From the NCBI GenBank assembly GCA_047610595.1, contig JBLFZR010000001.1:25746-89745 (forward strand): a DNA stretch of 64,000 nucleotides. The letters are read 5' to 3'. The position numbers were made by a program, and so were the translations under genes. Positions 22,370 to 47,060 of this stretch are shown here, piece after piece. The stretch is from Nitriliruptoraceae bacterium (GTDB lineage: Bacteria; Actinomycetota; Nitriliruptoria; Nitriliruptorales; Nitriliruptoraceae). Numbering within the stretch: position 1 is the stretch's first letter; each line of letters opens with the position of its first letter. A model generated the notes under the pieces. That model was not told the DNA's origin and made no database searches. It was given only the letters and a program-made list of their open reading frames with translations.

Positions 22370-23556
22370 CGGAGGGCGATCGCCTCACGGTAAGCCGCAA
22401 GGTTGCGGGCCACCTCGTTAACCGTGTCTCCACCGAACTTCTCGAGCAACGCGTCAGCGAGCTCGTACGCCACGACATGTTCCAGCACCACGCCCGCTCG
22501 CGGGACCGCACACCGGTCCGAGCGCTGTGTGATCGCGACGGCCGGCTCGTGCGTATCGATGTGAGCTGTCTTCATCGGCCGGTCCAACGACGACAGCGGC
22601 TTCATCACCACGCGCATCATCAGCGGCTGGCCGGTGGTCATGCCCGCTTCGAGCCCGCCCGCGCGGTCCGTGCTGCGGACGTAGCCGTCGCGGTCGTTCC
22701 ACGAGATCTCATCGTGGGCCTCGCTGCCGGGAACGTCGCCGAGCCGGAACCCGAGACCGAACTCAACGCCCTTCATCGCTTGCACGCTCATCGCAGCTGC
22801 GGCGAGCCGCGCATCGAGCTTGCGGTCCGCGTGCACGTGACTTCCCAGCCCCGGAGGAAGCCCGTACGCCAGCACCTCGATCACGCCTCCGAGCGTGTCA
22901 TTGTCGTCCTTCGCGCGATCGATACGCGCCTGCATCCGCGCCGAGCTGTCAGCGTCGAAGCATCGGCACGGGTCATCGTCGACCGCTTGCAGATCGTCGG
23001 GCCCCGGACGCACGGCGTCCTCGGGCGTCGCTTCTCCCCCGATGCGCACGACGTGGCTCACAACTGTGATGCCAACCGCATACAGCAGCTGCCGCGCGAG
23101 AGCACCAACAACGACGCGCGAGGCCGTCTCGCGGGCTGAGGCGCGCTCGAGCGCGTCTCGCACATCCTCGTACTCGTACTTGAGGGCACCCACGAGGTCT
23201 GCGTGGCCCGGCCGCGGGCGCGTAAGCATCTCGCCGCGACCGGTAGCCCGAATCGCATCAAGGTCGTCGCGCGGCTCTGGGTCCATCGCGTCAACCCACT
23301 TGGGCCACTCGGTGTTGCTGATGACCACACTGATCGGGGAACCCATGCTGCGCCCGTGTCGGACACCGGCCAACACCTCAAGCTCATCGAGCTCAAAGCT
23401 CATCCGAGGGCTCCGGCCGTATCCAAGGCGCCGTCGCGCGAGCTCTCCGGCCAGCAGCGCTCGGTTGACGTCGAGACCTGCGGGCAAGCCCTCGACAGTC
23501 GCAACGAGCGCCTTACCGTGAGACTCACCGGCGGTGAGGAATCGAAGACGAGGCAC
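22366..23556 (-). CDS. aroC: chorismate synthase
   Basis: RFLTAGESHGKAL, GRSPRMSFE, ERASARETASRV. GTG start with GGAG upstream. Confidence 0.95.
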   Translation of the reverse strand: MPRLRFLTAGESHGKALVATVEGLPAGLDVNRALLAGELARRRLGYGRSPRMSFELDELEVLAGVRHGRSMGSPISVVISNTEWPKWVDAMDPEPRDDLDAIRATGRGEMLTRPRPGHADLVGALKYEYEDVRDALERASARETASRVVVGALARQLLYAVGITVVSHVVRIGGEATPEDAVRPGPDDLQAVDDDPCRCFDADSSARMQARIDRAKDDNDTLGGVIEVLAYGLPPGLGSHVHADRKLDARLAAAAMSVQAMKGVEFGLGFRLGDVPGSEAHDEISWNDRDGYVRSTDRAGGLEAGMTTGQPLMMRVVMKPLSSLDRPMKTAHIDTHEPAVAITQRSDRCAVPRAGVVLEHVVAYELADALLEKFGGDTVNEVARNLAAYREAIALR

Positions 23557-23722: not shown

Positions 23723-25072
23723 TCAGCGGACCTCGTCCCACTGCACCACGATCGGCTCACCGTTCTCGCCCAGGTCTGGGATCGCACCACCGTCATAGTT
23801 GATGATGCCGGTACCACTAAACGTCGTACCGAAACCCAGCGAGTCACGCGCGACGAACGAGATGTTGTCGGTTATCGGGTTTCCGATGAACGTCATGCTG
23901 CCGTTCGCGAACACCAGCGCCGGACGTTGCAGCTCCGTGGCGAGCAGGTTCGCCTGCAGTGTGATGTCGCCACCAGCGAGCAGAAACAGCCCGGGATACA
24001 AGCCGTCTAGGCTTGGCTGGCTGGCGCTCGGTCCGATTGTGATATCGCCGTCTGTGACGATGGTGATCGAGCCGTTCGGCCTCGAGATATCCACATCTAC
24101 CTCATCACGAAAGAAGTACACACCTCTCGCTGTCGAGGTGCCAGCGAACGACGTGCCAACCCACGACGCAGGCGGGCTGCTCATCGCGACACCAGAACAC
24201 GGGGACAGGTCCGATGCCGCGCGTTGAAACCACAAGCCGGCGCAGTGGTCGAACCAAAGCCCCTGTGCTGCCAGCTCGAGCGCGTCGTCGGTGCCCCACA
24301 CGTTTCCTGGGTCTACCTCCGGGATAGGCACCGCAGCGATCGGCCCCGTGATCTTGGCCACCGCTGTGCCAAGGCATAGAAGGGAGGCGCAGGTGCCGCT
24401 GTAGCTGATGCCTTCTTCTGCCACGCCAGACACCCCGTTCACCTTCAGACCACCGTTGCTGTGCACGGAGCCGCGGTCGCCCGTGATGAGGAAGCCTCCG
24501 TTCATGGTCAGATTTCCCCCCGAGAGCAGCGCCGACTCACCAGTGAATCGCCGCGACGAGAACGCAACCTGTACACGCACGACCCGCGCGTATGCCGATC
24601 CGGTGCCGTTGACATAAGCCGTGCGACTCGGCGTGAAACCGACGCCGTAGATGAAGTTCGCATCGACACCCGAGGGACGGATCGCGACGGCCTCGCCCTC
24701 GACGAACGCGATCAGCGGCTCAAGGGGGTCCAGCAGGTACGCGCCAGACGCTTCTTGGGCCGTTGCGACCGCAAGCGCCCACGCCGCGGGCCCTTGCCCC
24801 GTCGCAGTCGGACCATCAATCCCGCTGGTGTCGTCAGGGTTGTTCGCGAGCCGCTGGAGGAACACCTCCGCCCCGGCCTCAGCCACATGGACCGTGTCTT
24901 CGAAGTCAAGCTCGAACGCAGCCTGATCCTGTTCGGACTTTGCCGTTGCGAACACGATGCCCACGATGCCCGACACGACCAGCACAACCAGCAGCGCGTA
25001 CACCATCGCAAAACCGTCATCGCGGCCGTGACTCGGCACCATCGGTCGCTCCCGTTCGTTTGATGTGGTCAC
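23723..25072 (-). CDS. PilX-like pilus protein with large C-terminal repeat (beta-helix-like) domain
   Basis: N-terminus ...GRDDG|FAMVYALLVVLVVSGIVGIVFA resembles a PilX_N/prepilin-like anchor. GTGA overlap with the upstream pseudopilin gene. Alternative ATG at 25042 has GGGAG 6 nt upstream. Confidence 0.6.
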   Translation of the reverse strand: MTTSNERERPMVPSHGRDDGFAMVYALLVVLVVSGIVGIVFATAKSEQDQAAFELDFEDTVHVAEAGAEVFLQRLANNPDDTSGIDGPTATGQGPAAWALAVATAQEASGAYLLDPLEPLIAFVEGEAVAIRPSGVDANFIYGVGFTPSRTAYVNGTGSAYARVVRVQVAFSSRRFTGESALLSGGNLTMNGGFLITGDRGSVHSNGGLKVNGVSGVAEEGISYSGTCASLLCLGTAVAKITGPIAAVPIPEVDPGNVWGTDDALELAAQGLWFDHCAGLWFQRAASDLSPCSGVAMSSPPASWVGTSFAGTSTARGVYFFRDEVDVDISRPNGSITIVTDGDITIGPSASQPSLDGLYPGLFLLAGGDITLQANLLATELQRPALVFANGSMTFIGNPITDNISFVARDSLGFGTTFSGTGIINYDGGAIPDLGENGEPIVVQWDEVR

Positions 25073-26571
25073 GGTGTGTCGGGCCCAACCGTCACAACCG
25101 TCACGCTGTTCTGAGACTCGTCGTACTGATACCCGCCCGATGGATCGTTGACCTGTGTCACCGTGAATGTCAGGGTTTTGTTATGGCCGATCCCTGGCAC
25201 GACGACCTGACACGCACCGGACGCATCCGTGGAGCAGCTGACGTTCGTGCTGCTGGATGTGTAAGCCGTCGCAGAGATGATCACGCCGGCGCCAGGAGTA
25301 CCCACGGTGGTGAGACCGAGCTCGATCGTGACATGCGCCTCCCATTTGTTGCTCGCGCCAACGGCACCGCCCGCGGCATCCATCTGAGCAACAAACATCG
25401 TGGTCGAGCTCGCGGTGATGGCAGCGCTGTGACTGTCACTCAGCGGTGACAGCAGGTCGTCGTCCGTGACGGTCAACGTCACCACGTAGTCCCCGTTCTG
25501 TGGGAACGTGTGGGTGATGCCCGCATCGTTCTCGGTAACAGGGCTCGTGCCGTCACCGAACTCCCACTCGTAGCTTTCGATGCCACTGTCGTCGTTGCTG
25601 GCACTCCCATCAAAGGTGCAGATCACTGCCACGCAGCTGACCGTGAAGGCCGCTGTAGGACGGGCGTTACCAGACGTCAGCCCTGGACGTACGACCACGG
25701 TGACGCTGGCGCTCTGTCCGGTGGCGTCGGTCACGGTCAAAGTGACCTCATAGTCCGTGTCCCCGGAGCTGAACGTGTGGCTTGCGGTTGGAATCAACCC
25801 TGTGTCTACGTCTTCAAGCTCAAAGTCCCACACGTAGCTGGTGATCTCGTCACCGTCTACGTCGAAGCTCCCGCTCGCGTCGAACGAGCATCCCACGGTT
25901 CCAACCGGGCACTCAAACGAAACGAGCGGCGTCGGTGGCGCCCCCTCAACGGCGCTTAGCCCAGCGTTTCGTATCTGGATCGTCGTGCTGGTCGCCAGGT
26001 TCGGCTCTCCAGCCTGCGGGTTTTCGACCTCAAACGTCACACGCACGCTTCGCGTCCTCGACGGACCACCCGCAACGATTCCGCCGTTGCGACAGGACAG
26101 GCTAAACGGCTGCGCTGCAGGCTGGGCGCCCGGATACACGAACACTGCGGCGTCGATGATGTCATCGCCGATGAGCTGGATCTCGTCACTCCCCGCGATA
26201 GGAGTGCGACGCTGGAACACCGCCTCGCCCGCCTCGTCCGTCACAAGCTCGAAGATGTCCAGCTCGGAGTCCACCACGAGTCCGTCGCCGTTGTCGTCGG
26301 TCCACAGATCAAGGCTTGTCGCGGTCGAGCTAGCACAGACCTCGTCCGCGCCGCGAACAAAGTCCCGGATGCGCTGCGTGGCGATACGTGTGCTGTCGAG
26401 GGTGGACGCGACGTTTGTGGCGTCCAGCTGCGCACGAAAACCCCCAACGATGCCCGTGGTGGCGATCGTTGCCACGACAGCAAGCAGGGTCATCCCAACC
26501 AGCAGCTCCGCAAGGGTGGTGCCGTCCTCGCTGCGTGCACGGTGCCGGATGGTGTGGCGCTGCTTACCCAC
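25069..26571 (-). CDS. prepilin-type (class III signal peptide) protein with two PKD domains
   Basis: Leader VGKQRHTIRHRARSEDG|TTLAELLVGMTLLAVV, with Glu at +5. PKD repeats contain SYVWDFE...YEVTLTVTD and SYEWEFGDG...YVVTLTVTD. GTG 26571 has GGAGG 6 nt upstream. Confidence 0.7.
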   Translation of the reverse strand: MGKQRHTIRHRARSEDGTTLAELLVGMTLLAVVATIATTGIVGGFRAQLDATNVASTLDSTRIATQRIRDFVRGADEVCASSTATSLDLWTDDNGDGLVVDSELDIFELVTDEAGEAVFQRRTPIAGSDEIQLIGDDIIDAAVFVYPGAQPAAQPFSLSCRNGGIVAGGPSRTRSVRVTFEVENPQAGEPNLATSTTIQIRNAGLSAVEGAPPTPLVSFECPVGTVGCSFDASGSFDVDGDEITSYVWDFELEDVDTGLIPTASHTFSSGDTDYEVTLTVTDATGQSASVTVVVRPGLTSGNARPTAAFTVSCVAVICTFDGSASNDDSGIESYEWEFGDGTSPVTENDAGITHTFPQNGDYVVTLTVTDDDLLSPLSDSHSAAITASSTTMFVAQMDAAGGAVGASNKWEAHVTIELGLTTVGTPGAGVIISATAYTSSSTNVSCSTDASGACQVVVPGIGHNKTLTFTVTQVNDPSGGYQYDESQNSVTVVTVGPDTP

Positions 26572-27112
26572 GGGATACCTCCGAGAACAAGGTGCTTCTG
26601 CGGACCTCTTTTGAACCTCGTGGGAGGTCATAGCTCACCACGACAGTCACACGCCTCGTGCCGTCCGGTATCGCACTGTCCACGACCTTGGTCGCGATCG
26701 TGACGACCCGAATCTCTGCGATCGACGACGCCACCGAGCCCTGATACGGGGCCGCTGCATTGATCGCTCCAAGCTCGTTCTCAGCCAGCGGCTCGCAGCC
26801 GATCGGGCCACCGCCGTCGGGGTCAAACGCCCCCAGCGTGCCGCCGCAGCTGACGGTCGTCGAGTCAAACTCGTCTGGCAACATCAACAACGGGACGACG
26901 TACATCGCGATCTCGGCAGGCGCGCGTGCCCGCAGCCCTTCGATCACCTCCGTGGCCACCTGCGAGGCAGCCTGACGGGCACGTGACTCGCTCAAGGACT
27001 GGAGCCCGCCGATGATGGCAGCGAAGAAGGCCGTCATCGCGATACCGATCAGCATGAAGGTGACCAACGTTTCAACGAGTGAAACGCCTGATTCCCCTCG
27101 CAACGTGTCCAT
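26564..27112 (-). CDS. prepilin-type minor pilin/pseudopilin
   Basis: MDTLRGESG|VSLVETLVTFMLIGIAMTAFFA, with G at -1 and E at +5. GGAGG lies 7 nt upstream of the ATG. Confidence 0.7.
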   Translation of the reverse strand: MDTLRGESGVSLVETLVTFMLIGIAMTAFFAAIIGGLQSLSESRARQAASQVATEVIEGLRARAPAEIAMYVVPLLMLPDEFDSTTVSCGGTLGAFDPDGGGPIGCEPLAENELGAINAAAPYQGSVASSIAEIRVVTIATKVVDSAIPDGTRRVTVVVSYDLPRGSKEVRRSTLFSEVSRG

Positions 27113-27209
27113 ACGACGACCTCCGCTCGTTTCATCGGCCCGACAGGTTTTGGACTAAAGGAGCAATGTCTCCTCAGGTTTCCCGAACGGATGGGATGCA
27201 GACTGTGTC

Positions 27210-27232
27210 GTGCCGGCTGACCGGGCCAGCAC
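27210..27232 (-). terminator. possible partial terminator/attenuator hairpin between the PilP-like gene and the pseudopilin genes
   Basis: Minus-strand RNA GUGCUGGC-CCGGUCA-GCCGGCAC gives an 8-bp stem with one G.U pair. There is no U tract. Confidence 0.25.
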
Positions 27233-27264
27233 GCCCTCACAGCTGCGTGCTTGTCGCCAACAGA

Positions 27265-27897
27265 TCACTTCAGAACGGTCGCGCCGACGCACAACGAGAA
27301 GGACTCGTCGCCGTACTGCAGGGTCACGCACGAGCTATCGACAGCGAGCACACGAAACGAGGTGGCGAAGCTGTCGCCAGCCATGACCTCATAGGTCGTC
27401 GCGTCAACAACGACGGTGGCAGCATCAAGGTCGATAGCCGTCAGCGTCACCACCGTTCCCTCACACACCGTCTCGGCAGCGTCGCCGGAGCACGCCTGAC
27501 CGGTGACCGGCGGAGTGCTGGGCTCGTCCGGCTCCGCGGGCACCGGACCTGTGGGGTCGGCTGGGTCGGCTGGACCTGTGGGGTCAGCTGGGTCGGCTGG
27601 GTCCGCGAAGTCAGGAACGACCCGACGGAACGGGTCTCGTGAGAGGATGACTCGAATCGCGCTGTCACGGTTCGCGTCGCCGACAGCGCTCGCATCGATA
27701 CGGGCGACCAGAGCCGAGATCGGATCGGCAACGGACGTCGCTACAGCTGGTTCCTCGACGGCCGTGCCGTCGGCTGTCGTTGCCAGGACATCACTGGCCG
27801 CCCGAGCGTAATCACGATCGACGGCGAGCAGCGCGACAGCCCCGAGCAGCCCGGTCACGACCATGGCCTGCAGCATCCTGCGGCTGGCGATGTTCAT
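27265..27897 (-). CDS. PilP-like pilus assembly protein (hypothetical)
   Basis: ATGA overlap with the pilO stop. N-terminal membrane anchor, SRDPF motif, Pro/Asp-rich linker, and a C-terminal ~70-aa beta-rich domain with 4 Cys. Confidence 0.5.
   Translation of the reverse strand: MNIASRRMLQAMVVTGLLGAVALLAVDRDYARAASDVLATTADGTAVEEPAVATSVADPISALVARIDASAVGDANRDSAIRVILSRDPFRRVVPDFADPADPADPTGPADPADPTGPVPAEPDEPSTPPVTGQACSGDAAETVCEGTVVTLTAIDLDAATVVVDATTYEVMAGDSFATSFRVLAVDSSCVTLQYGDESFSLCVGATVLK
27545..27598 (-). repeat. 2 x 27-bp in-frame tandem repeat inside the PilP-like gene
   Basis: GGACCTGTGGGGTCGGCTGGGTCGGCT then GGACCTGTGGGGTCAGCTGGGTCGGCT (plus strand). Encodes PADPADPTG x2 in the linker. 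Confidence 0.9.
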
Positions 27898-28517
27898 GAC
27901 ACGACCTCCTGCTGCACGGCGGACTCGCTCGGGACCGCGCTCGGCGCAGCTTCGGGCGCCGGGACTGGCTGCTCATAGGTGTCGATGGAGGCGTACAGCG
28001 ACGCGATCACCGTCAGGTTGAGCGTGGGATACGAGCCAGGGGCTATCGACACGGTGTTGACGTTGAAACCGCGTGCTGTGATTCTGGGATCTTCGAGCCG
28101 ACGCAGAAAGTCCACGATCTGAAAGTACGAACCGGATGCGGTCATCGACAGCGAGATCTGGTGCAGCTTCACACCTGCAGTGACCGGCGTTGGACGCCCT
28201 GTCGAGAGCTGACTGATCACAACTCCGGCATCATCAGCTGCGGCTTGCATCTGCCGTAGCGCACTTTCGATCTCATCACTCGTCGGCACCACCGACCGGA
28301 GGGCCGCGATGTTCGATTCCATCTGCGCCGATCGACTGCGCATCGACTCCAGCGCTGTTATCCGGCTCTGAAGCGCGACGCCCTGCGCCTCGACTGCTGC
28401 CAGATCTGACTCAAACACCGTCACCTGTTCGCGCTGCGGTGACATCAGAAGCATCCACCACAACGCGATGGCGAGAACCAGCGCGAGCACGGGCACGAGG
28501 ATCGCCTGACGACTCAT
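27894..28517 (-). CDS. pilO: type IV pilus assembly protein PilO
   Basis: Single N-terminal TM segment, then coiled coil, then ferredoxin-like core (LSMTASGSYFQIVDFLRRLE). ATGA overlaps on both sides. Position follows pilN. Confidence 0.75.
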   Translation of the reverse strand: MSRQAILVPVLALVLAIALWWMLLMSPQREQVTVFESDLAAVEAQGVALQSRITALESMRSRSAQMESNIAALRSVVPTSDEIESALRQMQAAADDAGVVISQLSTGRPTPVTAGVKLHQISLSMTASGSYFQIVDFLRRLEDPRITARGFNVNTVSIAPGSYPTLNLTVIASLYASIDTYEQPVPAPEAAPSAVPSESAVQQEVVS

Positions 28518-29143
28518 TGATCACCCCGTCCGTGCGTGTTGTATCGGTTGGTGCGAACCTCTGGGCCGAGGTCCATGTCGAGCGAGAAGGTCGTGACATC
28601 GAACTCATCCACGCTTGCCCCGCCGCCGAACACGTTGTCGAACGCCGCCGCCCGCTCTACGTCAAGCATGAGTCGTTCGAGGCCGGGTGCCAGCCCCACA
28701 AGGACTCGTCCGGCCAGAATCAAACGTCCGTGTGACAGCCGTGTCCCACCGGCCTGTGGCAGCGCCGGTTCGGGGCTGATCGTCAGACTGAGCGTCTGCA
28801 GCTCCGCAGTCGGTGGCAGGACCGCAGCTAGATCCTGCAGGATGCCCGCGACGGACGCTTCCTGTCCCATCGCAGTGGACACCTCGGCCGCTGCATCCGC
28901 ACGACGTTGCTCTAAGTCAGCGAACGGTGCCAGCTCCCCCACACGGGCCTGCAGCACGCGGTTCGCGTCCTGGCCAGCGGCCAGATTCTGCTCGGACGTC
29001 GCTACGGCGGCGCCTTGCGCGACGGTCAGTGCGCCCATCACGGCCACCAGAGCCGCAGCAGCTGCGATCGACGCGTTTCGACGCCGTACCGCACGAGCTT
29101 GCTTCATGATCGCGTGGGGTAGCAGGTTGACTTTGACGCTCAT
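28514..29143 (-). CDS. pilN: type IV pilus assembly protein PilN
   Basis: MSVKVNLLPH, the conserved INLLP-type PilM-binding N-terminus, followed by a TM segment. ATGA overlap with pilM. Confidence 0.8.
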   Translation of the reverse strand: MSVKVNLLPHAIMKQARAVRRRNASIAAAAALVAVMGALTVAQGAAVATSEQNLAAGQDANRVLQARVGELAPFADLEQRRADAAAEVSTAMGQEASVAGILQDLAAVLPPTAELQTLSLTISPEPALPQAGGTRLSHGRLILAGRVLVGLAPGLERLMLDVERAAAFDNVFGGGASVDEFDVTTFSLDMDLGPEVRTNRYNTHGRGDQ

Positions 29144-30174
29144 TCGAGACCTCCCAGCGCGAGCCCGATAGAGGTCGCCAGGACCGGTCCCCACGCCACC
29201 AACGTCTCTTCATCCACGTCGAGCGAATGATCCACAAAGTCGAACGGGCGCGCGATCTCAACGTTGAGACCGAGCGCATCCATGAGTTGCTCGCGAAGCC
29301 CGACCAGCACAGAGCCACCGCCCGCGAGCACGACGCGGTCAACGCGCCCCACGCCTGTCTGTGCCCGGAAGTAGTCCAGTGACGAACGAATCTCATCCGC
29401 GAACTGATGCACGCGCTCCAAGATGATCAAGCTCGTAGGGTCTGTCCCTGTAGCGCCCAGGCTTCGCTTACGCAGCTCCGCGTCCGCGAACCCGATGTCC
29501 TCAGCCGAGGCCACCGATGCAGTGATGTCGTCGCCTCCGAGCACAAGGATGCGCACGAACAGCGGCACGCCGGCCTGATGCACGACAACCGAAGTCACGC
29601 CGGCGCCGATGTCGATAAACACCTCGCTGGTGTCGCCCAGCGACTCAGTCGCGAGCGCCCGAAGCAGCGCGAACGGGTTCAAGTCGACCCCAACCGGTTT
29701 AAGACCAGCCTTGGTGACCGCACCAACGTGGGCGCTGATCATGTCTTTCTGCGCCGCCACCAGCAGCACCCGGAGCGTGCGACGCCCCTGCGCATCAGTG
29801 ACTTCCTCAAGCGTGTGATAGTCAAGCTCAGCAGCTTCAACGGGGATAGGGATGAACTCCTGGACCTGGAACGGCAACGACTGGCGCAGCTCATCGTCGG
29901 GCAGGTACGGCAGGTTCACCTGGCGTACGACTACACGTTGGTTCGCAACGCCTAAGTGCACATGCTTATCGCGCAGCCCGAGAGATGCGTAACCCCGCTT
30001 GATGGTCGCCACAACTGCGTCCATGTCGACGATCTCGCCCTCACGCACGGCACCCACGGGCAGCTCGACCTGCTCGACAGACTGCACGACACGGCGTCCC
30101 TTCTTGACCACCACCTCGGTGATCGTGACCGATCGGGTCCCGATGTCGAGCCCAACGGCGCGAGAACGGGCCAT
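29140..30174 (-). CDS. pilM: type IV pilus assembly ATPase-like protein PilM
   Basis: Actin-like fold motifs VGLDIGTRSVTITEV and IDIGAGVTSVVV...LAGGGS. 344 aa. Confidence 0.9.
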   Translation of the reverse strand: MARSRAVGLDIGTRSVTITEVVVKKGRRVVQSVEQVELPVGAVREGEIVDMDAVVATIKRGYASLGLRDKHVHLGVANQRVVVRQVNLPYLPDDELRQSLPFQVQEFIPIPVEAAELDYHTLEEVTDAQGRRTLRVLLVAAQKDMISAHVGAVTKAGLKPVGVDLNPFALLRALATESLGDTSEVFIDIGAGVTSVVVHQAGVPLFVRILVLGGDDITASVASAEDIGFADAELRKRSLGATGTDPTSLIILERVHQFADEIRSSLDYFRAQTGVGRVDRVVLAGGGSVLVGLREQLMDALGLNVEIARPFDFVDHSLDVDEETLVAWGPVLATSIGLALGGLE

Positions 30175-30377
30175 CAGCTCAGACCCTCGGTACCAGTGCT
30201 CGGCGACACCGAGGACTGCAGGTACGCGGCAAGCGTCTCCGGCGCGATCCGGTAGCTACGCCCGATGCGAAGCGCCCCCAGCTCGTCGCGCTGAATCAAG
30301 CGATACACCGTCATCGTGGACACTCGGAGGCTCACAGCCACCTCTGCCACTGTGAGCAGCGTCGGAGTCTCAGCCAC
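30174..30377 (-). CDS. small excisionase/MerR-family helix-turn-helix DNA-binding protein
   Basis: LLTVAEVAVSLRVSTMTVYRLIQRDELGALRIGRSYRI. GTG 30377 has GGAGG 6 nt upstream. Its stop overlaps the pilM ATG (TGATG). Confidence 0.8.
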   Translation of the reverse strand: MAETPTLLTVAEVAVSLRVSTMTVYRLIQRDELGALRIGRSYRIAPETLAAYLQSSVSPSTGTEGLS

Positions 30378-30402
30378 CGTTGTCCTCCGTCTTGTTGGGT
30401 GT

Positions 30403-30609
30403 TTACACCGCGGCGGCATGCCCTTCAGGCAACAGCACACGCGCCACTTCTACCACATCCGCATCATCTGCGACTACGGCCTCAACTACCACCGTCGGCA
30501 CAGTGGCCACACGACTGTAGGACAGTGACCACATCAGCTGCTCGGTTTCGACGGCCGCATCCACCACGCGTCGCTGCCGTCCGAGCGCCAGCGACGCAGG
30601 CGGAAACAC
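30403..30609 (-). CDS. possible 68-aa acidic small protein (uncertain)
   Basis: An in-frame GTG lies 1 nt after the pilD stop, and the ORF ends 25 nt before the HTH start, so it exactly fills the gap. SD is weak, and third-position G/C is only moderate (about 45 of 69 codons by eye). Confidence 0.3.
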   Translation of the reverse strand: MFPPASLALGRQRRVVDAAVETEQLMWSLSYSRVATVPTVVVEAVVADDADVVEVARVLLPEGHAAAV

Positions 30610-30610
30610 C

Positions 30611-31411
30611 TTATGCCAGCCCGAGCAGGGAGAGGACGGGGGTTCGCAACGCCCTACCTCCAACGATGGCCAGCAGCATCCCGGCTGCCAGGTAGGGCCC
30701 AAACGGGATGCGTGACGCGAGCTTCACTCGTCCGGTCGCCAGCAGCGTCACCGCCATACACACAGCACTCAGCATCGCTCCGTACAGCAGCACGGCAACC
30801 TCGAAGCCACCCAGGTAGCCCGCGACCAAACCCAGCGAGATCAGCAGCTTGACGTCACCCATCCCGAAGCCGGCTCGACCACGCAGCAGTCGGTAGCTCT
30901 CCCCAAGAAGGAAGAGACCGAGCGGCACGAGAACGGCCGCCATCACGCCGCGCCGGAGCGCGAGCAGCGAGCCGGGGCCCCAGATTGACGGAGGAGCCAG
31001 CAGCACCAGCAGCACGAACGGCAGCCGGTACGTAAGCCGGTTCGGGATGATGCGGTGCTCGATGTCGATCGCGGTCACAACGACCAACGACCACGTAAGC
31101 GCAAGGAGCGCTGGTAACAGCAGCGTCGCGCCTTCGGAGGCCGCAACGATGCCAAACAGCAGCGCCGTCACGGCTTCTACGAGCGGGTAACGCCAATGAA
31201 TCGGTTCCTGACACTCCCGACACTGACGTCCGAGCAACAGCCATGACACCACCGGAACGTTGTCGCGCGGTCGAATCGGTGCGTCGCAGAAAGGACACGC
31301 TGATCGCTTCGGCTCACTGACGCTCCGGCCGAGCGGCCAGCGGTGGATCGGCACGTTCGCGAAGGAACCAAAGATCAATCCCAGCACGGCGCAGGCGGTA
31401 ACAACGATCAC
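30611..31411 (-). CDS. pilD: prepilin peptidase (A24 family, with N-terminal Cys-rich methyltransferase-type region)
   Basis: CPFCDAPIRPRDNVPVVSWLLLGRQCRECQ (CxxC...CxxC). Catalytic-type IDIEHRIIPN and GMGDVKLL. Start set at GTG 31411, because the longer ORF would overlap the pilin gene. Confidence 0.85.
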   Translation of the reverse strand: MIVVTACAVLGLIFGSFANVPIHRWPLGRSVSEPKRSACPFCDAPIRPRDNVPVVSWLLLGRQCRECQEPIHWRYPLVEAVTALLFGIVAASEGATLLLPALLALTWSLVVVTAIDIEHRIIPNRLTYRLPFVLLVLLAPPSIWGPGSLLALRRGVMAAVLVPLGLFLLGESYRLLRGRAGFGMGDVKLLISLGLVAGYLGGFEVAVLLYGAMLSAVCMAVTLLATGRVKLASRIPFGPYLAAGMLLAIVGGRALRTPVLSLLGLA

Positions 31412-31565
31412 AGTGTTCCGTTCGGGGAACGAGGAGAGGAACGCACAACACCCCTCCAGTTGTCGGACATGGCGGCGCGTCCGCGCAGGTGCAGGCACAA
31501 GATACGGCTGGCCGGCCGCAGATGCGGCCGGCCAGCCGCGATGCGCGACGACGTGTGTCGTTCGA

Positions 31566-32054
31566 TCAGCCGGTGGCGCACACGGCCGCAGCGAAGCCCT
31601 GAATGCCGCCATCAACTGAGCTGTACGTGACGTTGTTGTCCCCGCCAATCAGCTGATGCGAGAAGCAGATCTTGAACGCAGTCCCGCTCACGCTGAAGTC
31701 AGTAGCGGCAACGCCGGCGTAGCTCTCGGCCAAACCAGCGGCGCTGCGAGTCACAACACCGAACTCAACGTCGCTTGCACCGAGGGCGACGAGCTGGCCG
31801 TCAACAAAGCTCTCGAAATCGGCCGCAGCGCCCCCGATGAGGTAGTTACCACCGAACGCAGTGGCCTCGGCCTCTACCTCCAGCGCGATGTTGCGGACCG
31901 CGCTCGTGAGCTCGGCCTGCCACGCCCGCTCCCGCTGGCTCAGAAACTGAGGGATCGCGATCGCGGCAAGGATTCCGATGATGATCACGACAACGAGGAG
32001 CTCGATAAGCGTGAACCCCTCTTCGTGGCGCCGCGCGCGGATGGAGCTGGTCAT
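31566..32054 (-). CDS. pilA: type IV major pilin
   Basis: MTSSIRARRHEEG|FTLIELLVVVIIIGILAAIAIPQF, a canonical class III signal peptide with E+5. C-terminal Cys pair (CFSHQ...AAVCATG). 162 aa. Confidence 0.85.
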   Translation of the reverse strand: MTSSIRARRHEEGFTLIELLVVVIIIGILAAIAIPQFLSQRERAWQAELTSAVRNIALEVEAEATAFGGNYLIGGAAADFESFVDGQLVALGASDVEFGVVTRSAAGLAESYAGVAATDFSVSGTAFKICFSHQLIGGDNNVTYSSVDGGIQGFAAAVCATG

Positions 32055-32283
32055 GGGTGGTGTCCCTTCAGGACGAATAAGTGCGATGAAACGCCATGAG
32101 ACGTTGACGCAATCATCGGCACATGGCTTCGCGACCTTGAGCATCGGAGCCAGGACACCCTCCCGCGGCGGGCCCTCGGTGTCAAGCTTCAATGAGACGG
32201 GTCGCCCGATCAATCACTGAGCCTGACGGAGTAACGGAGATCACCAAGGCTGAGATCCTCGACATCTGCCGCGACCAACAGCC

Positions 32284-33504
32284 TCATACGAGGTTCATGA
32301 TCTCGAAGATCGGCATGTACAGCGCGATGACCATCGACCCAACGATCGCACCGAGGACCGCGATCATGATCGGCTCCATCATGGCAGTCAGCTGGTCGGT
32401 GGTCGCCTCGATCTCACGGTCGTAGAAGTCCGAGATCTTGTTCAACATCGTGTCGACAGCACCAGTCTCCTCGCCGACGGCGATCATCTGAGTCACCATG
32501 GAAGGGAACACGACATGCTTCGCCAGTGGCACAGCCATCGCCTCCCCCTCACGGACTCCTGACTGCACGTCCTTGATCGCAACGCTCATCACGCCGTTGT
32601 CCACCGTCTCGGCTGCGATCTCGAGTGCTTGCAAGATCGGCACACCCGACTGCAGCAGGATCGCCAGGTTCCGAGCGAACCGCGTGATCGCAATCTTGTG
32701 AAAGAGCTCACCGAACACGGGCAGCTTGAGCTTTATCACATCGAGCTGAAACCGACCGTTATCTGTCTTCCTGTAGGCCTTGAAAGCCTGCCACAACGCG
32801 ATAGGGCCGATCAGAAACGTGAACACACCAGCCCACGATGTGATGAAGTTGGACGCAAACAGCAAGATCTTGGTTGGCCCCGGCAAATCGCCCCCAAGGG
32901 TGTCAAACAGCCCTACGAAGGTCGGAACGATGAAGATGAGCATCGCAGCGGTCAGACCGATCGCCATACACAACACCAGCACCGGGTACGTCATGGCTGA
33001 CTTGATCTTCTGGCGAAGCGCCACGTCCTTCTCGAGGTTGTCGGCGACCTGCAGCAGCACGCGATCAAGCATGCCGGCAGCTTCACCAGCGCGAACGAGC
33101 GCGATGTAGAGCTTCGGGAAGTCGTCGTGATCAGCCATCGCGGCTGACAAGGAACGACCAGCCTCGACGTCGCTGGTCATCGTCTCGAGCACCTCAGCCA
33201 GCTTGACGTTGTCAGTCTGCTCTTGGAGGATCACCAGCGCACGCAGCAGTGACAGGCCCGAGCTGATCATGGTTGCGAACTGCCGCGAGAAGATCGCGAG
33301 ATCTTTCAGACCAACCTTCGGGCCGAAGCCCGGAATCGTCAGCTCCTTGCTCCCGAGCCCCTCCTTCTTCTGCTCGATGGAGATAGGGGCATAGCCCATA
33401 GAGCGCAGCTTCTCGGCCACCGCGGCTTGGGTGTCAGCCTCCAGCTCGCCCAACACGAGCGTTCCTGCCCTGTCGCGAACCTGATACGCGAACGTCGAGG
33501 TCAT
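32284..33504 (-). CDS. pilC: type IV pilus platform protein PilC (GspF family)
   Basis: Two GspF repeats (FSRQFATMISSGLSLLRAL and FARNLAILLQSGVPILQAL). C-terminal MPIFEI. 406 aa. Confidence 0.92.
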   Translation of the reverse strand: MTSTFAYQVRDRAGTLVLGELEADTQAAVAEKLRSMGYAPISIEQKKEGLGSKELTIPGFGPKVGLKDLAIFSRQFATMISSGLSLLRALVILQEQTDNVKLAEVLETMTSDVEAGRSLSAAMADHDDFPKLYIALVRAGEAAGMLDRVLLQVADNLEKDVALRQKIKSAMTYPVLVLCMAIGLTAAMLIFIVPTFVGLFDTLGGDLPGPTKILLFASNFITSWAGVFTFLIGPIALWQAFKAYRKTDNGRFQLDVIKLKLPVFGELFHKIAITRFARNLAILLQSGVPILQALEIAAETVDNGVMSVAIKDVQSGVREGEAMAVPLAKHVVFPSMVTQMIAVGEETGAVDTMLNKISDFYDREIEATTDQLTAMMEPIMIAVLGAIVGSMVIALYMPIFEIMNLV

Positions 33505-33593
33505 GGTGGCTCCCTAGGTGTCTGGCGCGCGTCACGCCTCGTATGTGTATCGGTCGATGGGAGCCGGCACTACAGCTCCGTCTTAACCGCATC

Positions 33594-35192
33594 TCATCCA
33601 CGTCCCGCCAGTCGATTGAACTCCGACACTTGGCTGCACTTGTCCAGAGCATCGTCGTACGTCACCGTGCCCTTCTTCACAAGCGTGGCCAGTGACTGGT
33701 CCATCGTCACCATGCCGTGGGACGCTCCAGCCTGCATAGCCGAGTAGATCTGGTGGGTCTTGCCTTCACGGATGAGGTTCTTGATACCTGACGTGGCCAT
33801 CATGATCTCGGTCGCGACAGTCCGACCTTTGCCATCCGCCGTCTTAAGGAGCGTCTGACACACGACACCTTTCAGCGCACCAGCCAGCATGACGCGGATC
33901 TGCTCCTGCTGGTGCGGCGGGAACACGTCGATGATTCGGTCGATCGACTGCGGTGCGTCCTGCGTGTGCAGCGTGCCAAACACCAGGTGGCCAGTCTCCG
34001 CGGCGGTCAACGCGATCTGAATCGTCTCGAGGTCGCGCAGCTCACCCACCAAGATCACATCCGGATCTTGTCGCAGGACGTGCTTGAGCGCTGCGGTGAA
34101 CGAGTAGCTGTCGGTGCCGATCTCGCGCTGATTCACCACCGACTTCTTGTGCTCGTGCAAGAACTCAATAGGGTCCTCAATCGTCATGATGTGAGCGGCC
34201 CGCTGCTCGTTCACCGTGTTGATCAAGGCGGCAAGCGTGGTCGACTTACCGGAGCCGGTCGGTCCTGTTACGAGCACAAAGCCTCGCGGAAGGAACGCCA
34301 GATTCGAAACCTGCGACGGGATACCGAGCTGCTCCAGCGTCATCATCTCGAACGGGATCACACGCATCACCGAGGCGATGGACTGGCGCTGCTGGAACAC
34401 GTTTACTCGAAAACGCGCCAACCCGGCGATCTGGTAGGACATATCGAGCTCGAGGTTGTTCTCGAACTCCTCACGCTGCTTCTGTGTCATGATCGCGTAC
34501 AGCATCCCCTGCAGCTCGTCTGGAACCATCTGCGGATAATCGGGCAGCTGCTGCATATCGCCGTGCACACGAACGGACGGAGCGACGCCGGCCGTGAGAT
34601 GCAGATCCGAACCACCACTCTCGATCAGCTTCGCCAGCAGCTCGTTGAGGTCGACCGATGCCCCTGTCTCGCTGCGCAGTCGAGGTTCGGCGGCCCCCAC
34701 GGCCACCGGTGCGTCAGCTGTCAACCCCTGCGAACCTGGCGCGACGTGCCGATCGTCAACGACGGCGACAGGGCTGAGGTGACGAATCGCGTCCATCACC
34801 TGCGCTCGAGCTGCCAACACAAGCTCGACGGCTTGGCCCGTGTGCTCTGTCACCCGCGCGGCAGCGCCACGATTGTTGGGGTTGGCGATAGCCACCACGA
34901 TGGCGTTTCCCTCCCCAAACCCGACCGGGACAGCCTCAATCTCGGCTGCAAGATGTTGCGGAACCAATCCGACCGCGGCCATGTCCACGGTCGTGGGCTT
35001 CACCTCGATGAACCGCATACCGAGCTGCGTCGCAGCTGCCTGCATCAGCTCATCTTGGCTCGCGTACCCAAGATCGAGGACGGCACGTCCGAGGCTCACC
35101 CCCTGCTGCTGCTGGTGCGCCGTGGCGTCGGTGAGCTGCGTCTGACTGATGGTGCCGCGCTGGACGAGGGCATCCCCGAGTCCGATTGTCAT
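33594..35192 (-). CDS. pilT: twitching-motility (retraction) ATPase PilT with N-terminal T2SSE_N/MshEN-like domain
   Basis: Walker A GPTGSGKST. PilT signature GIKNLIREGKTHQIYS. No tetracysteine Zn motif. ~190 extra N-terminal residues carry two LGxxLVxxG...Q motifs. Confidence 0.9.
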   Translation of the reverse strand: MTIGLGDALVQRGTISQTQLTDATAHQQQQGVSLGRAVLDLGYASQDELMQAAATQLGMRFIEVKPTTVDMAAVGLVPQHLAAEIEAVPVGFGEGNAIVVAIANPNNRGAAARVTEHTGQAVELVLAARAQVMDAIRHLSPVAVVDDRHVAPGSQGLTADAPVAVGAAEPRLRSETGASVDLNELLAKLIESGGSDLHLTAGVAPSVRVHGDMQQLPDYPQMVPDELQGMLYAIMTQKQREEFENNLELDMSYQIAGLARFRVNVFQQRQSIASVMRVIPFEMMTLEQLGIPSQVSNLAFLPRGFVLVTGPTGSGKSTTLAALINTVNEQRAAHIMTIEDPIEFLHEHKKSVVNQREIGTDSYSFTAALKHVLRQDPDVILVGELRDLETIQIALTAAETGHLVFGTLHTQDAPQSIDRIIDVFPPHQQEQIRVMLAGALKGVVCQTLLKTADGKGRTVATEIMMATSGIKNLIREGKTHQIYSAMQAGASHGMVTMDQSLATLVKKGTVTYDDALDKCSQVSEFNRLAGRG

Positions 35193-35223
35193 GGTCCCAC
35201 ACTCCTGGTCTGGCGGCGCGTAG

Positions 35224-36894
35224 TCAGACGACCACACGACCGATCTCTTCGATGGTGGTGATCCCGGTTAAGACCTTGGCAAGGCCGTCGTCGCGCATCG
35301 TCAACATGCCCTGCTCGATCGACATGCGCTTGATGTCGTCCGACGAGGCACGAGCGACACACATGCGTTCGATCTCTTCGGTGACCGTCATGATCTCGTG
35401 GACCGCCAGCCGTCCCCTGTAACCAGTCTTGCCGCACGACGAGCATCCGGTGAGCTTGGGCACCGCCGGGCGCGACTCGGCAAGCTCCTCGCTGTAGCCC
35501 GCCAAGATGTACGCGTCCGGCTCGAGCGTCTGCATCATGGTGCATTTCTTGCAGACGCGGCGGCACAACCGCTGCGCGAGGACGCAGTCGGTTGCGGACG
35601 CCACGAGGAACGGCTCCACACCCATCTCGATCAGCCGGATGATCGCGCTCGCAGCATCGTTGGTGTGCAACGTGGACAGCACGAGGTGACCGGTCAGCGC
35701 AGCCTCAACGCCGATGGTCGCGGTCTCTTTGTCGCGCATCTCGCCCACGAGCACCACGTCTGGGTCCTGGCGCAGGATCGATCGCAGCGCCGTCGCGAAG
35801 GTCAGACCGACCTTGTTGTTGATCTGCACCTGGTTGATACCCGGAAGGCGGTACTCAACGGGGTCCTCGGTGGTGACGATGTTGATATCTGCGTTGTTTT
35901 TCACGTTCAGGGTGGCATACAGCGTCGTGGACTTACCGGAACCGGTTGGCCCCGTCACCAGAATCAGCCCGTACGGCTTGCGGTAGGACTCTTCGTACCG
36001 ACGCTCGTTGTCCGGTTCAAAGCCAAGGTCTCGCAGCTCGAGCATCACGGACGTTCGGTCCAGGATGCGCATCACCACCTTCTCGCCGTACACCGTGGGA
36101 AGCGTCGAGAATCGGAGGTCGATGGCCTTGCCTGCGATGTTGAGCGCGATACGACCGTCCTGCGGGATCCGCTTCTCGGCGATGTCCACCTCGGCCATGA
36201 TCTTCAGCCGAGAGATGACACCAGACTGAATCGACTTCGGGCTGCGCATGACCTCATGCAGCACACCGTCTACCCGGTAACGGACGCGGAGGTCCCGCTC
36301 CCCCGGCTCGATATGAATGTCGGACGCCCCATCGTTCACAGCCTGCGAGATGAGCAGGTTGACGAACTTCACGATCGGCGGCTCCTCGCTGACGACGGTG
36401 AGGCCCGATAGGTCCGCGAGGTCCTCCTCGAGCGTGCCGAAATCGTCAGCGATCGACTCGATCTCGTCGCCCATCTTGCTAAGTCGACGGATCGCGTCCC
36501 GTACGTCATCGCGGGTCGCGACGACTGGGACGAGGTCGCGCTTCGTGATCGACCGGATGTCATCGAGCGCGAAGACGTTGGCAGGGTCACTCATCGCGAC
36601 GATAAGTGCGCCGTTCGCGTCCAAACGCAACGGAAGGGCGTTGTATCGCTTGGCCAGCGTTTCAGAGATCATCGAGGCCGCGATCGGATCGATCTCAGCC
36701 TCCGACAGATCGACAAAATCCAGCCCTATCTGTGACGCCAGCGCACACACCAAGTCGCGCTCACCGAGGTAGCCACGGTCCACGAGCACGCGTCCGAGGG
36801 AACGTCCCTTCTCACGATGAGCCTCATCCGCTTCCTCGACCTGTTCCACGGTGACCAGGCCCTGCTCCACGAGCATGGCTCCAAGCCCATTCAT
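35224..36894 (-). CDS. pilB: type IV pilus assembly (extension) ATPase PilB (GspE family)
   Basis: N-terminal T2SSE_N. Walker A GPTGSGKST. Tetracysteine motif CRRVCKKC...CSSCGKTGYRGR. 556 aa. Confidence 0.93.
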   Translation of the reverse strand: MNGLGAMLVEQGLVTVEQVEEADEAHREKGRSLGRVLVDRGYLGERDLVCALASQIGLDFVDLSEAEIDPIAASMISETLAKRYNALPLRLDANGALIVAMSDPANVFALDDIRSITKRDLVPVVATRDDVRDAIRRLSKMGDEIESIADDFGTLEEDLADLSGLTVVSEEPPIVKFVNLLISQAVNDGASDIHIEPGERDLRVRYRVDGVLHEVMRSPKSIQSGVISRLKIMAEVDIAEKRIPQDGRIALNIAGKAIDLRFSTLPTVYGEKVVMRILDRTSVMLELRDLGFEPDNERRYEESYRKPYGLILVTGPTGSGKSTTLYATLNVKNNADINIVTTEDPVEYRLPGINQVQINNKVGLTFATALRSILRQDPDVVLVGEMRDKETATIGVEAALTGHLVLSTLHTNDAASAIIRLIEMGVEPFLVASATDCVLAQRLCRRVCKKCTMMQTLEPDAYILAGYSEELAESRPAVPKLTGCSSCGKTGYRGRLAVHEIMTVTEEIERMCVARASSDDIKRMSIEQGMLTMRDDGLAKVLTGITTIEEIGRVVV

Positions 36895-37038
36895 AGGACG
36901 ACCTTCAAACCCTGACGCAGCACGTGTCCTCCTGCGGTTACAACCCGACGCATGTCAGGCACTCACGCTTCGTGATCAGCTTCGCACACCTCGCCTCTGT
37001 GTCAAGCGTCGGCGCACGCTGCCGAATCTTGAGCAAGT

Positions 37039-37914
37039 TCACTGCGTGAACGCCACCGATGTTGCGCCACCGAGCGCTGCCTCGTAGCTGCCGACCGGCG
37101 CCACGCCGCCGGTCCAGACCTCAAACGCATCCGCCGCTTGAGCCACGAGCATCGCCGTGCCGTCGTGCGCCTCGACGCCGCGATCAAGAGCTGAAGCTAC
37201 GAAAGGCGTCACGCGGTGCCCGTACACAAGATCGTGGGCGATCTGACCGTCATGCAGCTCCATAAACGCCGCTGGCAACGACTCACCCGCCATCCCGAGC
37301 GTCGTCGCGTTCAGGACGACACGCGCGTCGCGCACCAGCGCACCGATCCCGCTCGCAGACAGGTCAAGCGCCCGTGAGGACGGCGCACCGGCTGTCGTCG
37401 CCAGCGCGGACAGCAGCTGTGCGGCATCCAGATCACGGCCGATGACAGCGACTGCAGCCCCGGCCCGACCCAAGGCGACGACGGCGGCGCGGGCGGCCCC
37501 ACCTGTCCCGAGCACAACACACACATTGCCCGCGATGCCCGGCACGGTTGAGCCCAACACGCGCCCGAGGCCGGTGGTGTCGGTGGTGGTGCCATGCAGC
37601 GAACCGTCGCGCCACCACAGCGTGTTCACAGCGCCGACCAAGCGGGCCTCGGCCGTCAGCTCGGCGCACAACGCATACGCGGCCCGCTTGTGTGGGACCG
37701 TCACGTTGGCGCCGAGGGCTCCGACGGCTCCCAACCCGGCGATGGCGGACGCAAGATCTGCGGGTGCAACACGCAGTGCGACGTAGACAACATCGAGACT
37801 GAGCTCGCGAAACACCGTGTTGTGAAGCTGCGGCGAGAGCGAGTGTGCCACCGGGTCGCCGAGCAACGCCGCGAGCCTGGTGCTGCCGCCGGGCCACGTC
37901 ACAGGCTGACTCAC
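37039..37914 (-). CDS. aroE: shikimate dehydrogenase
   Basis: LLGDPVAHSLSPQLHN and NADP-binding VLGTGGAARA. GTG 37914 overlaps the mltG stop (GTGA). Confidence 0.85.
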   Translation of the reverse strand: MSQPVTWPGGSTRLAALLGDPVAHSLSPQLHNTVFRELSLDVVYVALRVAPADLASAIAGLGAVGALGANVTVPHKRAAYALCAELTAEARLVGAVNTLWWRDGSLHGTTTDTTGLGRVLGSTVPGIAGNVCVVLGTGGAARAAVVALGRAGAAVAVIGRDLDAAQLLSALATTAGAPSSRALDLSASGIGALVRDARVVLNATTLGMAGESLPAAFMELHDGQIAHDLVYGHRVTPFVASALDRGVEAHDGTAMLVAQAADAFEVWTGGVAPVGSYEAALGGATSVAFTQ

Positions 37915-45464: not shown

Positions 45465-45468
45465 GCTG

Positions 45469-46970: not shown

Positions 46971-47060
46971 GCACGCTCCTGCAACGCGCAGCGACCTCGG
47001 TAGGCCGCTGAGGCGCGAAGCGTAGGCTCCGGCCCCGGACACCCCGACCGAGCGGTCCCT

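Follow-up and report, generated by a model that had tools for sequence, protein, structure and literature searches.

How did a run of type IV pilus (T4P) genes come to stand between the core genes aroE and aroC in an actinobacterium, and what would such genes do there? The question is raised by a Nitriliruptoraceae genome, from which we analysed a stretch of 64 kb (contig JBLFZR010000001.1; hereafter the window). On its minus strand, positions 23723-36894 hold an uninterrupted run of 13 intact co-oriented genes in the order pilB, pilT, pilC, pilA, pilD, a helix-turn-helix (HTH) gene, pilM, pilN, pilO, a gene in the position of pilP and three minor prepilin genes. We read the region as a complete, vertically inherited type IVa pilus (T4aP) machine of the monoderm type, lodged in a slot that was occupied early in the Actinomycetota and has been reduced to a peptidase gene in some lineages, and we place the probability of this reading at about 0.72. 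Gene identities are profile matches, and the steps of the mechanism are inferred from the biology of the families to which the genes belong.

Gene content and organisation of the cluster

The profile searches recovered PilB, PilT, a two-repeat PilC, PilMNO, a two-domain PilD and a type IVa prepilin, the components by which a T4aP is recognised. The initial annotation had described a complete T4aP-type cluster with PilT and PilMNO, and this description holds: the PilT, PilM, PilO, PilD and pilin profiles score above their curated cutoffs and PilN is identified via its orthologues. PilB matches T2SSE (459 bits), and its highest-scoring NCBIfam model is TIGR02538 PilB, at 643 bits, with GspE at 594 and ComGA at 254. 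PilT matches the PilT/PilU model TIGR01420 over residues 182-521 with 483 bits against a cutoff of 319, and its translation contains GIKNLIRE, which resembles the PilT signature AIRNLIRE. PilC is a single two-repeat protein, with T2SSF (PF00482) matched in two stretches (224 bits). PilD combines A24_N_bact (101 bits) with Peptidase_A24 (47 bits), and its Cys4 motif and catalytic Asp residues (D115, GD185VK) are invariant among relatives. PilM matches PilM_2 (188 bits) and TIGR01175 (218 bits, cutoff 133), while PilO matches PF04350 with 32.5 bits against a cutoff of 22, shows weak similarity to GspM and belongs to a family found in at least 58 loci. The PilN of the window has no direct match in Pfam; its family was located after pilM in at least 59 loci with an iterative hidden Markov model, and 7 of 15 orthologues match Pfam PilN (PF05137), the best with E = 1.8e-9. 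The N-terminus of PilN carries an NLLP-type motif, presumably the one that binds PilM.

Three other assignments of the same genes were tried and rejected. For a Tad/Flp system, the TadA-family model TIGR03819 scores no higher than 41-54 bits, PilC is a single two-repeat protein and the mature pilin has 149 aa. For a ComG system, ComGA (254 bits, cutoff 300), ComGB (140, cutoff 240) and ComGC (33, cutoff 75) all fall short, and PilT and PilMNO are present. For a type II secretion system, GspE stays below its cutoff of 630 as well as below PilB, there is no secretin, GspL or GspC, and a PilT is atypical of such systems.

None of the 13 open reading frames (ORFs) is truncated, and the catalytic motifs are intact. 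The co-oriented pil ORFs reported in the initial annotation are all present on the minus strand where it had placed them, and the stop/start overlaps of 1-8 nt that it had noted, from the HTH gene to the PilP-position gene and among the minor prepilin genes, measure 1 nt for HTH/pilM, 4 nt each for pilM/pilN, pilN/pilO and pilO/PilP-position, 8 nt for minor prepilins 1 and 2 and 4 nt for minor prepilins 2 and 3. Its count of up to 14 ORFs is reduced by one. The additional small ORF at 30403-30702 (99 aa) extends into both pilD and the HTH gene, and no relative shows a conserved counterpart (best tblastn E = 0.25); it is unsupported, and the cluster therefore has 13 genes (Table 1).

Table 1. 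Positions of the cluster genes, the hairpin and the two boundary genes, in window coordinates
Feature	Position	Strand	Description
aroE	37039..37890	(-)	upstream boundary; Shikimate_dh_N 89 bits, SDH_C
pilB	35224..36894	(-)	extension ATPase, N-terminal MshEN domain
pilT	33594..35192	(-)	retraction ATPase, 532 aa, unusual N-terminal MshEN domain
pilC	32284..33504	(-)	inner-membrane platform protein, two T2SSF domains
pilA	31566..32054	(-)	major prepilin, 162 aa, ATG start at 32054
GC-rich hairpin	31504..31539	(-)	perfect 16-bp, 27 nt past pilA stop
pilD	30611..31411	(-)	two-domain prepilin peptidase / N-methyltransferase, GTG start at 31411
HTH gene	30174..30440	(-)	small HTH_17 / excisionase-family DNA-binding protein, 88 aa; exact start uncertain
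pilM	29140..30174	(-)	actin-like cytoplasmic alignment protein
pilN	28514..29143	(-)	N-terminus MSVKVNLLP; identity via orthologues
pilO	27894..28517	(-)	PF04350 match
PilP-position gene	27265..27897	(-)	label from position and motifs only
minor prepilin 1	26564..27112	(-)	182 aa, PilV/GspI-like
minor prepilin 2	25069..26571	(-)	modular pilin, two PKD domains, GTG start
minor prepilin 3	23723..25072	(-)	449 aa, PilX/GspK-like tip candidate
aroC	22366..23556	(-)	downstream boundary; Chorismate_synt 365 bits

For comparison with other genomes we used a PilD-alignment scan of 185,579 species genomes and its best 80 loci, those most similar to the window PilD. The product of the HTH gene matches HTH_17 (50 bits) and TIGR01764 (52 bits); the gene lies between pilD and pilM in 7 of the 80 loci and is also kept beside a lone pilD in a Nitriliruptoraceae metagenome-assembled genome (L003). 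The PilP-position family was found in 12 of them. Its alignment reveals a transmembrane helix, a conserved SRDPF motif, a Pro-rich repeat linker and a small Cys-containing C-terminal beta domain, a layout that resembles PilP with no homology test in favour; the label 'PilP-like' in the initial annotation is a matter of position and motifs only. The linker, PADPADPTGP, is encoded by a 27-nt tandem repeat at 27545-27607 (three copies, partly overlapping), a possible site of length variation.

The spacer between pilA and pilD folds with -85 kcal/mol (z = -4.7), and the same hairpin was recovered as an inverted repeat. It is likely to be a terminator or an mRNA stabiliser, consistent with a pilin transcript that is terminated or stabilised separately. 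Consensus scans for sigma-70 promoters and terminators returned fewer matches than in shuffled controls and were uninformative.

The cluster was said to be bounded by aroE (ending at 37039 on the side of the cluster) and aroC (starting at 23556) within an alaS-ruvX-mltG-aroE / aroC-aroK-aroB block, and this is what the window contains; the same conserved block was also seen in Mycobacterium celatum, Crossiella and Microbacterium. Beyond aroE lie mltG, ruvX and alaS, and beyond aroC lie aroK, aroB, a pepQ-like M24 peptidase gene, efp and nusB, with polA, rpsA, uvrB, relA and aspS as more distant neighbours: the region is core chromosomal. AroC aligns with the chorismate synthase chains 1ZTB/2O11, which we take to be the M. 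tuberculosis enzyme, with E = 6e-126.

Predicted pilus mechanism and function

PilA begins with the leader MTSSIRARRHEEG followed by FTLIELLVV, with Gly at -1, Phe at +1 and Glu at +5, matches N_methyl (36 bits) and TIGR02532, and has a C-terminal cysteine pair in a mature pilin of 149 aa. The three downstream proteins have class-III signal peptides, as read from their translations. In minor prepilin 1, RGESG is followed by VSLVE, and N_methyl (17 bits) and TIGR02523 PilV (29 bits) both match below cutoff. Minor prepilin 2 has two copies of PKD_4 (94 bits), a weak N_methyl match and a cleavage site at EDG followed by TTLAE. In minor prepilin 3, RDDG is followed by FAMVY; the Glu at +5 is absent, which presumably matches the tip pseudopilins GspK/PilX. 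The family of minor prepilin 3 occurs in at least 39 loci, and among 15 orthologues two carry DUF7305 and two a Ricin_B lectin domain.

From the biology of these families, PilD would cleave after Gly-1 and N-methylate PilA and the three minor prepilins. The minor pilins, one with two PKD domains and another devoid of Glu+5, would form a priming or tip complex. PilB, acting on the PilC platform and held by a PilM-PilN-PilO scaffold, would polymerise PilA through the cell wall with no secretin, and PilT would depolymerise the fibre, the resulting retraction allowing the cell to adhere and pull, to twitch or to take up DNA. Regulation of the operon on the pilM side probably falls to the small HTH protein.

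Both motors carry an MshEN domain (PF05157), a domain of the cyclic di-GMP (c-di-GMP) receptor type, which in PilB scores 79 bits and in PilT 40 bits, in the latter case within residues 1-180. The model for the c-di-GMP motif, NF053729, scores 50.9 bits in PilB and 47.2 bits in PilT against a cutoff of 38. Among the actinobacterial loci listed, the fusion of MshEN to PilT is confined to Nitriliruptoria, and full-length MshEN-PilT relatives are found in at least eight other protein clusters at 50% identity. MshEN has been described on extension ATPases, with no mention of a retraction ATPase (PMC5013675, PMC11656802), and no description of an MshEN-bearing PilT was found in the searchable literature. 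That c-di-GMP may gate both extension and retraction is speculative; the MshEN-PilT fusion suggests a direct action of c-di-GMP on the retraction motor, which, if demonstrated, would add something new to T4P regulation.

An intact machine might also serve mainly as a DNA-uptake (competence) pilus or a short pseudopilus, and not as an adhesive or twitching one. PilT-dependent T4aP drive uptake in many species (PMC6370729). The window is without the MglA/MglB/PATAN genes found next to pilB in relatives, which would fit a role other than motility. Cultured Nitriliruptoria are described as non-motile. Set against this, the cluster showed no comEA, comEC or dprA, the ComGA and ComGB models fall far below the PilB and PilC models, and the PKD modules together with the Ricin-B lectin modules of some minor prepilin 3 orthologues suggest adhesion. 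We regard a mainly DNA-uptake role as unlikely, with the proviso that uptake and adhesion or twitching are not mutually exclusive.

The aroE-aroC slot across Actinomycetota

The closest named relatives of the window PilD among the matches listed are from Egicoccus sp. (60% identity) and Nitriliruptoraceae metagenome-assembled genomes. Among loci whose flank extends to 6 kb or more, we counted those with aroC, aroK or aroB downstream of pilD in the same orientation and found the arrangement in 4/4 loci of Nitriliruptoria, 20/23 of Thermoleophilia and 11/15 of other Actinomycetota (Sanguibacter inulinus, Kineococcus, Acidothermaceae and others), that is, in 35 of the 42 loci of these groups with enough flank, and in none of the 11 non-actinobacterial loci. 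Upstream, aroE or mltG was present in the 80 loci whenever the cluster was short enough for the flank to be read. This recurrence implies that the arrangement is old and widespread in the phylum and is not a peculiarity of the window. Egicoccus (L001) and a related metagenome-assembled genome (L002) have the same gene order between aroE and aroC-aroK-aroB, with a PilT that is also MshEN-bearing.

Some variation was observed around this arrangement. Between aroE and pilB, L001 (2008-4655) and L002 (2499-4743) contain genes for a Roadblock/MglB-like protein, a PATAN (PatA_N) protein and a small Ras-like (MglA-like) GTPase, a trio that looks like a polarity or motility control module joined to the pilus operon; none of these was found in the 64 kb of the window, where the aroE-pilB gap spans 36895-37038. 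In most loci of Actinomycetes and Thermoleophilia (L005, L016, L021, L023, L043 and others) the block of minor-pilin genes, with the 449-aa family among them, is upstream of pilD; in Nitriliruptoria it is downstream of pilMNO, which implies that the operon has been rearranged internally while its chromosomal slot remained unchanged. In two Kineococcus loci (L018, L043) the aroE-pilT gap is about 1.1 kb, with no PilB match and no aroC match before aroK, and this version may be without an extension ATPase at this locus. Amycolatopsis sp. NEAU-NG30 has, clear of the aro genes (L088:10001-20200), a separate type IV filament cluster with a short PilT-like ATPase, an MshEN-T2SSE ATPase, a T2SSF protein, a ComGC_C-like pilin and a two-domain PilD of its own; in other Amycolatopsis species the only such peptidases are A24-only proteins of 213-222 aa.

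A related linkage is found outside the phylum. In E. coli K-12, hofM-N-O-P-Q is directly followed by aroK-aroB, the same pilMNO-to-aroKB linkage, and pilMNOPQ is likewise followed by aroK-aroB in Pseudomonas. The actinobacterial pilMNO ... aroC-aroK-aroB order looks like a version of the hofMNOPQ-aroK-aroB neighbourhood, and this likeness argues for vertical descent.

The initial annotation had put forward that model actinobacteria keep only a lone A24 peptidase-like gene between aroE and aroC, and proposed that this gene is a relic of the full machine. We sampled Actinomycetes independently of the peptidase, using an AroC profile that included the 1ZTB/2O11 sequence and then inspecting genomic contexts, with Streptomyces and Corynebacterium outside the survey. 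Mycobacterium celatum has alaS-ruvX-mltG-aroE / A24 (135 aa) / aroC-aroK-aroB-aroQ ... pepQ-efp-nusB; in Crossiella the order is the same apart from a PTS insert, and the A24 gene directly upstream of aroC encodes 223 aa; Thermomonospora (260 aa) and Nonomuraea gerenzanensis each have a lone A24 gene in that same place. The lone gene is thus present at the junction in three orders; it is not universal, as the one Microbacterium examined has an empty junction, aroE lying directly against aroC, and an A24 gene is missing from the aroC junction of Tsukamurella. L003, introduced above for its HTH gene, has alaS-ruvX-mltG-aroE, pilD, the HTH gene and aroC-aroK-aroB, its pilD being full-length and two-domain and overlapping aroE by 4 nt. 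The lone peptidases, of 135-260 aa, match PF01478 only, keep both catalytic Asp residues and have lost or degraded the Cys4 N-terminal domain that L003 retains.

A few records met in the survey need comment. The aroC of an Embleya 'plasmid' is an isolated copy, and a Streptomyces plasmid A24 gene lies in an unrelated context. The PLSDB entries NZ_LT559118.1 (Nonomuraea, 11.85 Mb) and NZ_CP108785.1 (Embleya, 5.7 Mb) are filed as plasmids; they carry core genes including aroC and are therefore chromosomes or pieces of chromosomes. In P0217, a Mycobacterium-like ENA contig, a 647-aa gene call joins Peptidase_A24, SDH_C and chorismate synthase domains and is almost certainly a mis-call across an aroE-A24-aroC junction, incidentally supporting that gene order. 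Nothing usable was found in the literature on Rv2551c, cg1830, SCO1497 or MSMEG_3031 as peptidases (MSMEG_3031 is aroK), and no literature was found that treats a prepilin peptidase together with chorismate synthase.

The relic proposal is supported by synteny in three actinobacterial classes, by the L003 intermediate and by the nesting of lone peptidases in the PilD tree, where they do not form an unrelated clade. This tree, built by neighbour joining on 145 columns of the peptidase domain with 200 bootstraps, groups L003, the window, L001 and L002 at 98%, and the Actinomycetes PilDs with the lone peptidases at 86%, the latter nested inside. These observations suggest that the lone junction peptidase of mycobacteria and relatives is a leftover of the same T4aP operon. 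On such an account a T4aP operon would have occupied the aroE/aroC slot early in Actinomycetota; lineages such as Mycobacteriales, Pseudonocardiales and Streptosporangiales would have deleted all of it except the peptidase, which would then have lost its N-terminal Cys4 domain and probably survives by still processing other prepilins, for example those of Flp/Tad pili.

The lone peptidases might instead be of the Tad type (TadV-like), placed beside aroC independently and not as T4aP remnants. They are short and match PF01478 only, like TadV, and an A24 peptidase encoded beside a Tad locus in Wenjunlia (Streptomycetaceae) falls among them in the tree, where a clade without it has 0% support. 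The tree itself was built with no bona fide TadV/CpaA outgroup, and the passage from a full cluster to aroE-pilD-aroC requires two deletions, pilD being internal. Against a Tad-type origin, the slot and orientation of the lone peptidases are those of the full clusters, and the L003 slot holds a full-length two-domain PilD alone with the cluster's own HTH gene. Thermomonospora and Crossiella keep vestigial N-terminal regions. When a profile was built from the lone peptidases, its best matches beyond their own kin were two-domain PilDs of actinobacteria, and in the tree the lone peptidases nest in the Actinomycetes PilD clade at 86%. The Wenjunlia placement fits retention of lone peptidases for Tad/Flp pilins, which may be what kept them, and also leaves room for the simple Tad-type view. 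On balance we judge an independent Tad-type origin to be distinctly unlikely.

That the cluster of the window is itself silent or decaying, a remnant moving towards the lone-peptidase state, seems very improbable. Every stage of loss can be seen among relatives and the window has already lost the MglAB/PATAN module, but none of its 13 ORFs is shortened, the catalytic motifs are undamaged, the coupled start/stop overlaps are preserved and codon usage is as in core genes. A recent horizontal insertion that landed by chance between aroE and aroC in this lineage is largely refuted: overall GC is lower in the cluster than in its flanks (0.58-0.65 vs 0.65-0.70) and movement of T4P loci from genome to genome is known (Denise 2019, PMC6668835), yet the insertion point and orientation are identical in three actinobacterial classes, PilD groups by class in the tree, third-position GC (0.70-0.81 in pil genes, 0.74-0.82 in flanks) is the same as in the flanking housekeeping genes, and there is no tRNA gene in the window, no integrase and no direct repeat at the cluster borders. 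Close relatives hold the cluster, and as far as composition can tell there is no sign of recent transfer, an outcome that speaks against the insertion which the initial annotation had named as a possible refutation of its relic proposal.

The reading of a complete, vertically inherited machine has to be set against several results that tell the other way. Pilus function is predicted throughout. PilB stays under the TIGR02538 equivalog cutoff (643 vs 675.65 bits), and the best NCBIfam matches of PilC, which are PilC models (424 and 383 bits), are also under their equivalog cutoffs. Minor prepilin 3 of the window has no family match in the profile searches, and its single-sequence AlphaFold2 model (predicted local distance difference test score, pLDDT, of 39) is confident only for the N-terminal helix and of too low quality to search by fold. 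Ten orthologues of the PilP-position protein returned nothing significant from Pfam (T2SSB, E = 0.087), comparison with E. coli HofP by hhalign gave a probability of 1%, and the single-sequence AlphaFold2 model, with a mean pLDDT of 44, was too poor for a fold search. The tandem 24-residue pattern of MshEN, [RKPN]hGxxhhxx[GAS]hhxxxxhxxxhxx[QNKRYWST] (Wang 2016, PMC5013675), has no exact match in PilB or PilT as a regular expression; by eye, motif II departs from it at position 1 alone (Ser), with motif I the more degenerate of the two. The 80 loci, chosen for similarity to the window PilD, are a biased sample, and in Microbacteriaceae (0/10 loci) the cluster is located away from the aro genes. 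Deep nodes of the tree are unresolved, with Thermoleophilia PilDs apart from other actinobacterial PilDs and 44% support for the node joining Nitriliruptoria and Actinomycetes.

A bolder version of the same reading would hold that the slot has housed a T4aP since the last common ancestor of Actinomycetota, perhaps within a still older neighbourhood to which the pilMNO-aroK-aroB linkage shared with Proteobacteria belongs, that the orphan A24 gene (in M. tuberculosis presumably Rv2551c) is the last gene of the operon, now serving Flp/Tad pili, and that PilT retraction in Nitriliruptoria is directly gated by c-di-GMP through MshEN, a form of control described until now for extension motors alone; we find the odds for and against this version evenly balanced. 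In either version the window offers a clean, complete, single-locus example of an actinobacterial T4aP with PilT and PilMNO, and the aroE-aroC interval is a simple positional marker by which any actinobacterial genome can be searched for the T4aP system or what is left of it. For the unexplained lone A24 gene of mycobacteria and relatives, the comparison proposes an origin and a function that can be tested, and cultured, probably tractable hosts of the full cluster exist in Sanguibacter inulinus DSM 100099, Kineococcus and Egicoccus. Slot conservation and the MshEN-PilT fusion are of modest follow-up value, and neither alters the view of how T4P work.

One further observation concerns the window outside the cluster. 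On the plus strand, a 555-aa ORF at 45358-47025 has no Pfam match and an Ala/Pro/Thr/Ser/Arg-rich translation, and is probably not a real gene. AT skew changes from +0.33 to -0.28 across 46-48 kb (46000-48000), and the next gene, at 47061-49016, encodes an AT3 acyltransferase-SGNH protein.

Comparison with known systems

T4aP, including pilT-containing operons, have already been predicted in Gram-positive bacteria and in Actinobacteria (PMC3244431, PMC6668835), and experimental work on the type IV filaments of actinobacteria has been confined to Tad pili (PMC6916266). The remark in the initial annotation that T4aP are barely studied in Actinomycetota is consistent with Pelicic 2019 (PMC6916266) and Denise 2019 (PMC6668835). 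We found no literature on T4P in Nitriliruptoria, and in the searchable literature no description of the positional conservation between aroE and aroC or of the series from full cluster through pilD with the HTH gene and truncated A24 to an empty junction.

The Tad/Flp pili of Micrococcus luteus and Bifidobacterium breve belong to the same phylum and likewise depend on an A24 peptidase; they are built from TadA, TadB/C, TadZ and tiny Flp pilins with no PilT or PilMNO, and none of these Tad components is present in the window cluster. The lone A24 genes at the junction share with the window their slot, orientation and catalytic aspartates, and differ in having no pilus assembly genes nearby. 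Vibrio cholerae MshE and other MshEN extension ATPases, which are c-di-GMP receptors, have the domain at the N-terminus, as in both ATPases of the window, which has it on PilT too.

The diderm T4aP of Pseudomonas aeruginosa, Myxococcus xanthus and Neisseria share with the window the core set of components and the profile families of PilT, PilM and the pilin. Unlike these, the window has no homologue of the PilQ secretin or of another outer-membrane T4aP component among its 13 genes, and no match to secretin families was obtained for any of them, as expected for a monoderm; its genes form one locus rather than being scattered, and aroC stands between the pilus genes and aroK. The monoderm T4aP of Firmicutes (Clostridium perfringens/difficile, Streptococcus sanguinis) are also encoded at a single locus with pilB, T, C, D, M, N, O and pilins, and share with the window a longish leader on the major pilin, the absence of a secretin and modular minor pilins with adhesive domains, represented here by the PKD domains of minor prepilin 2 (PMC6916266). 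From these the window cluster differs in its phylum, in the MshEN domain on PilT, in the extra HTH gene, in the RDPF-motif protein at the PilP position and in its place in the aroE/aroC slot.

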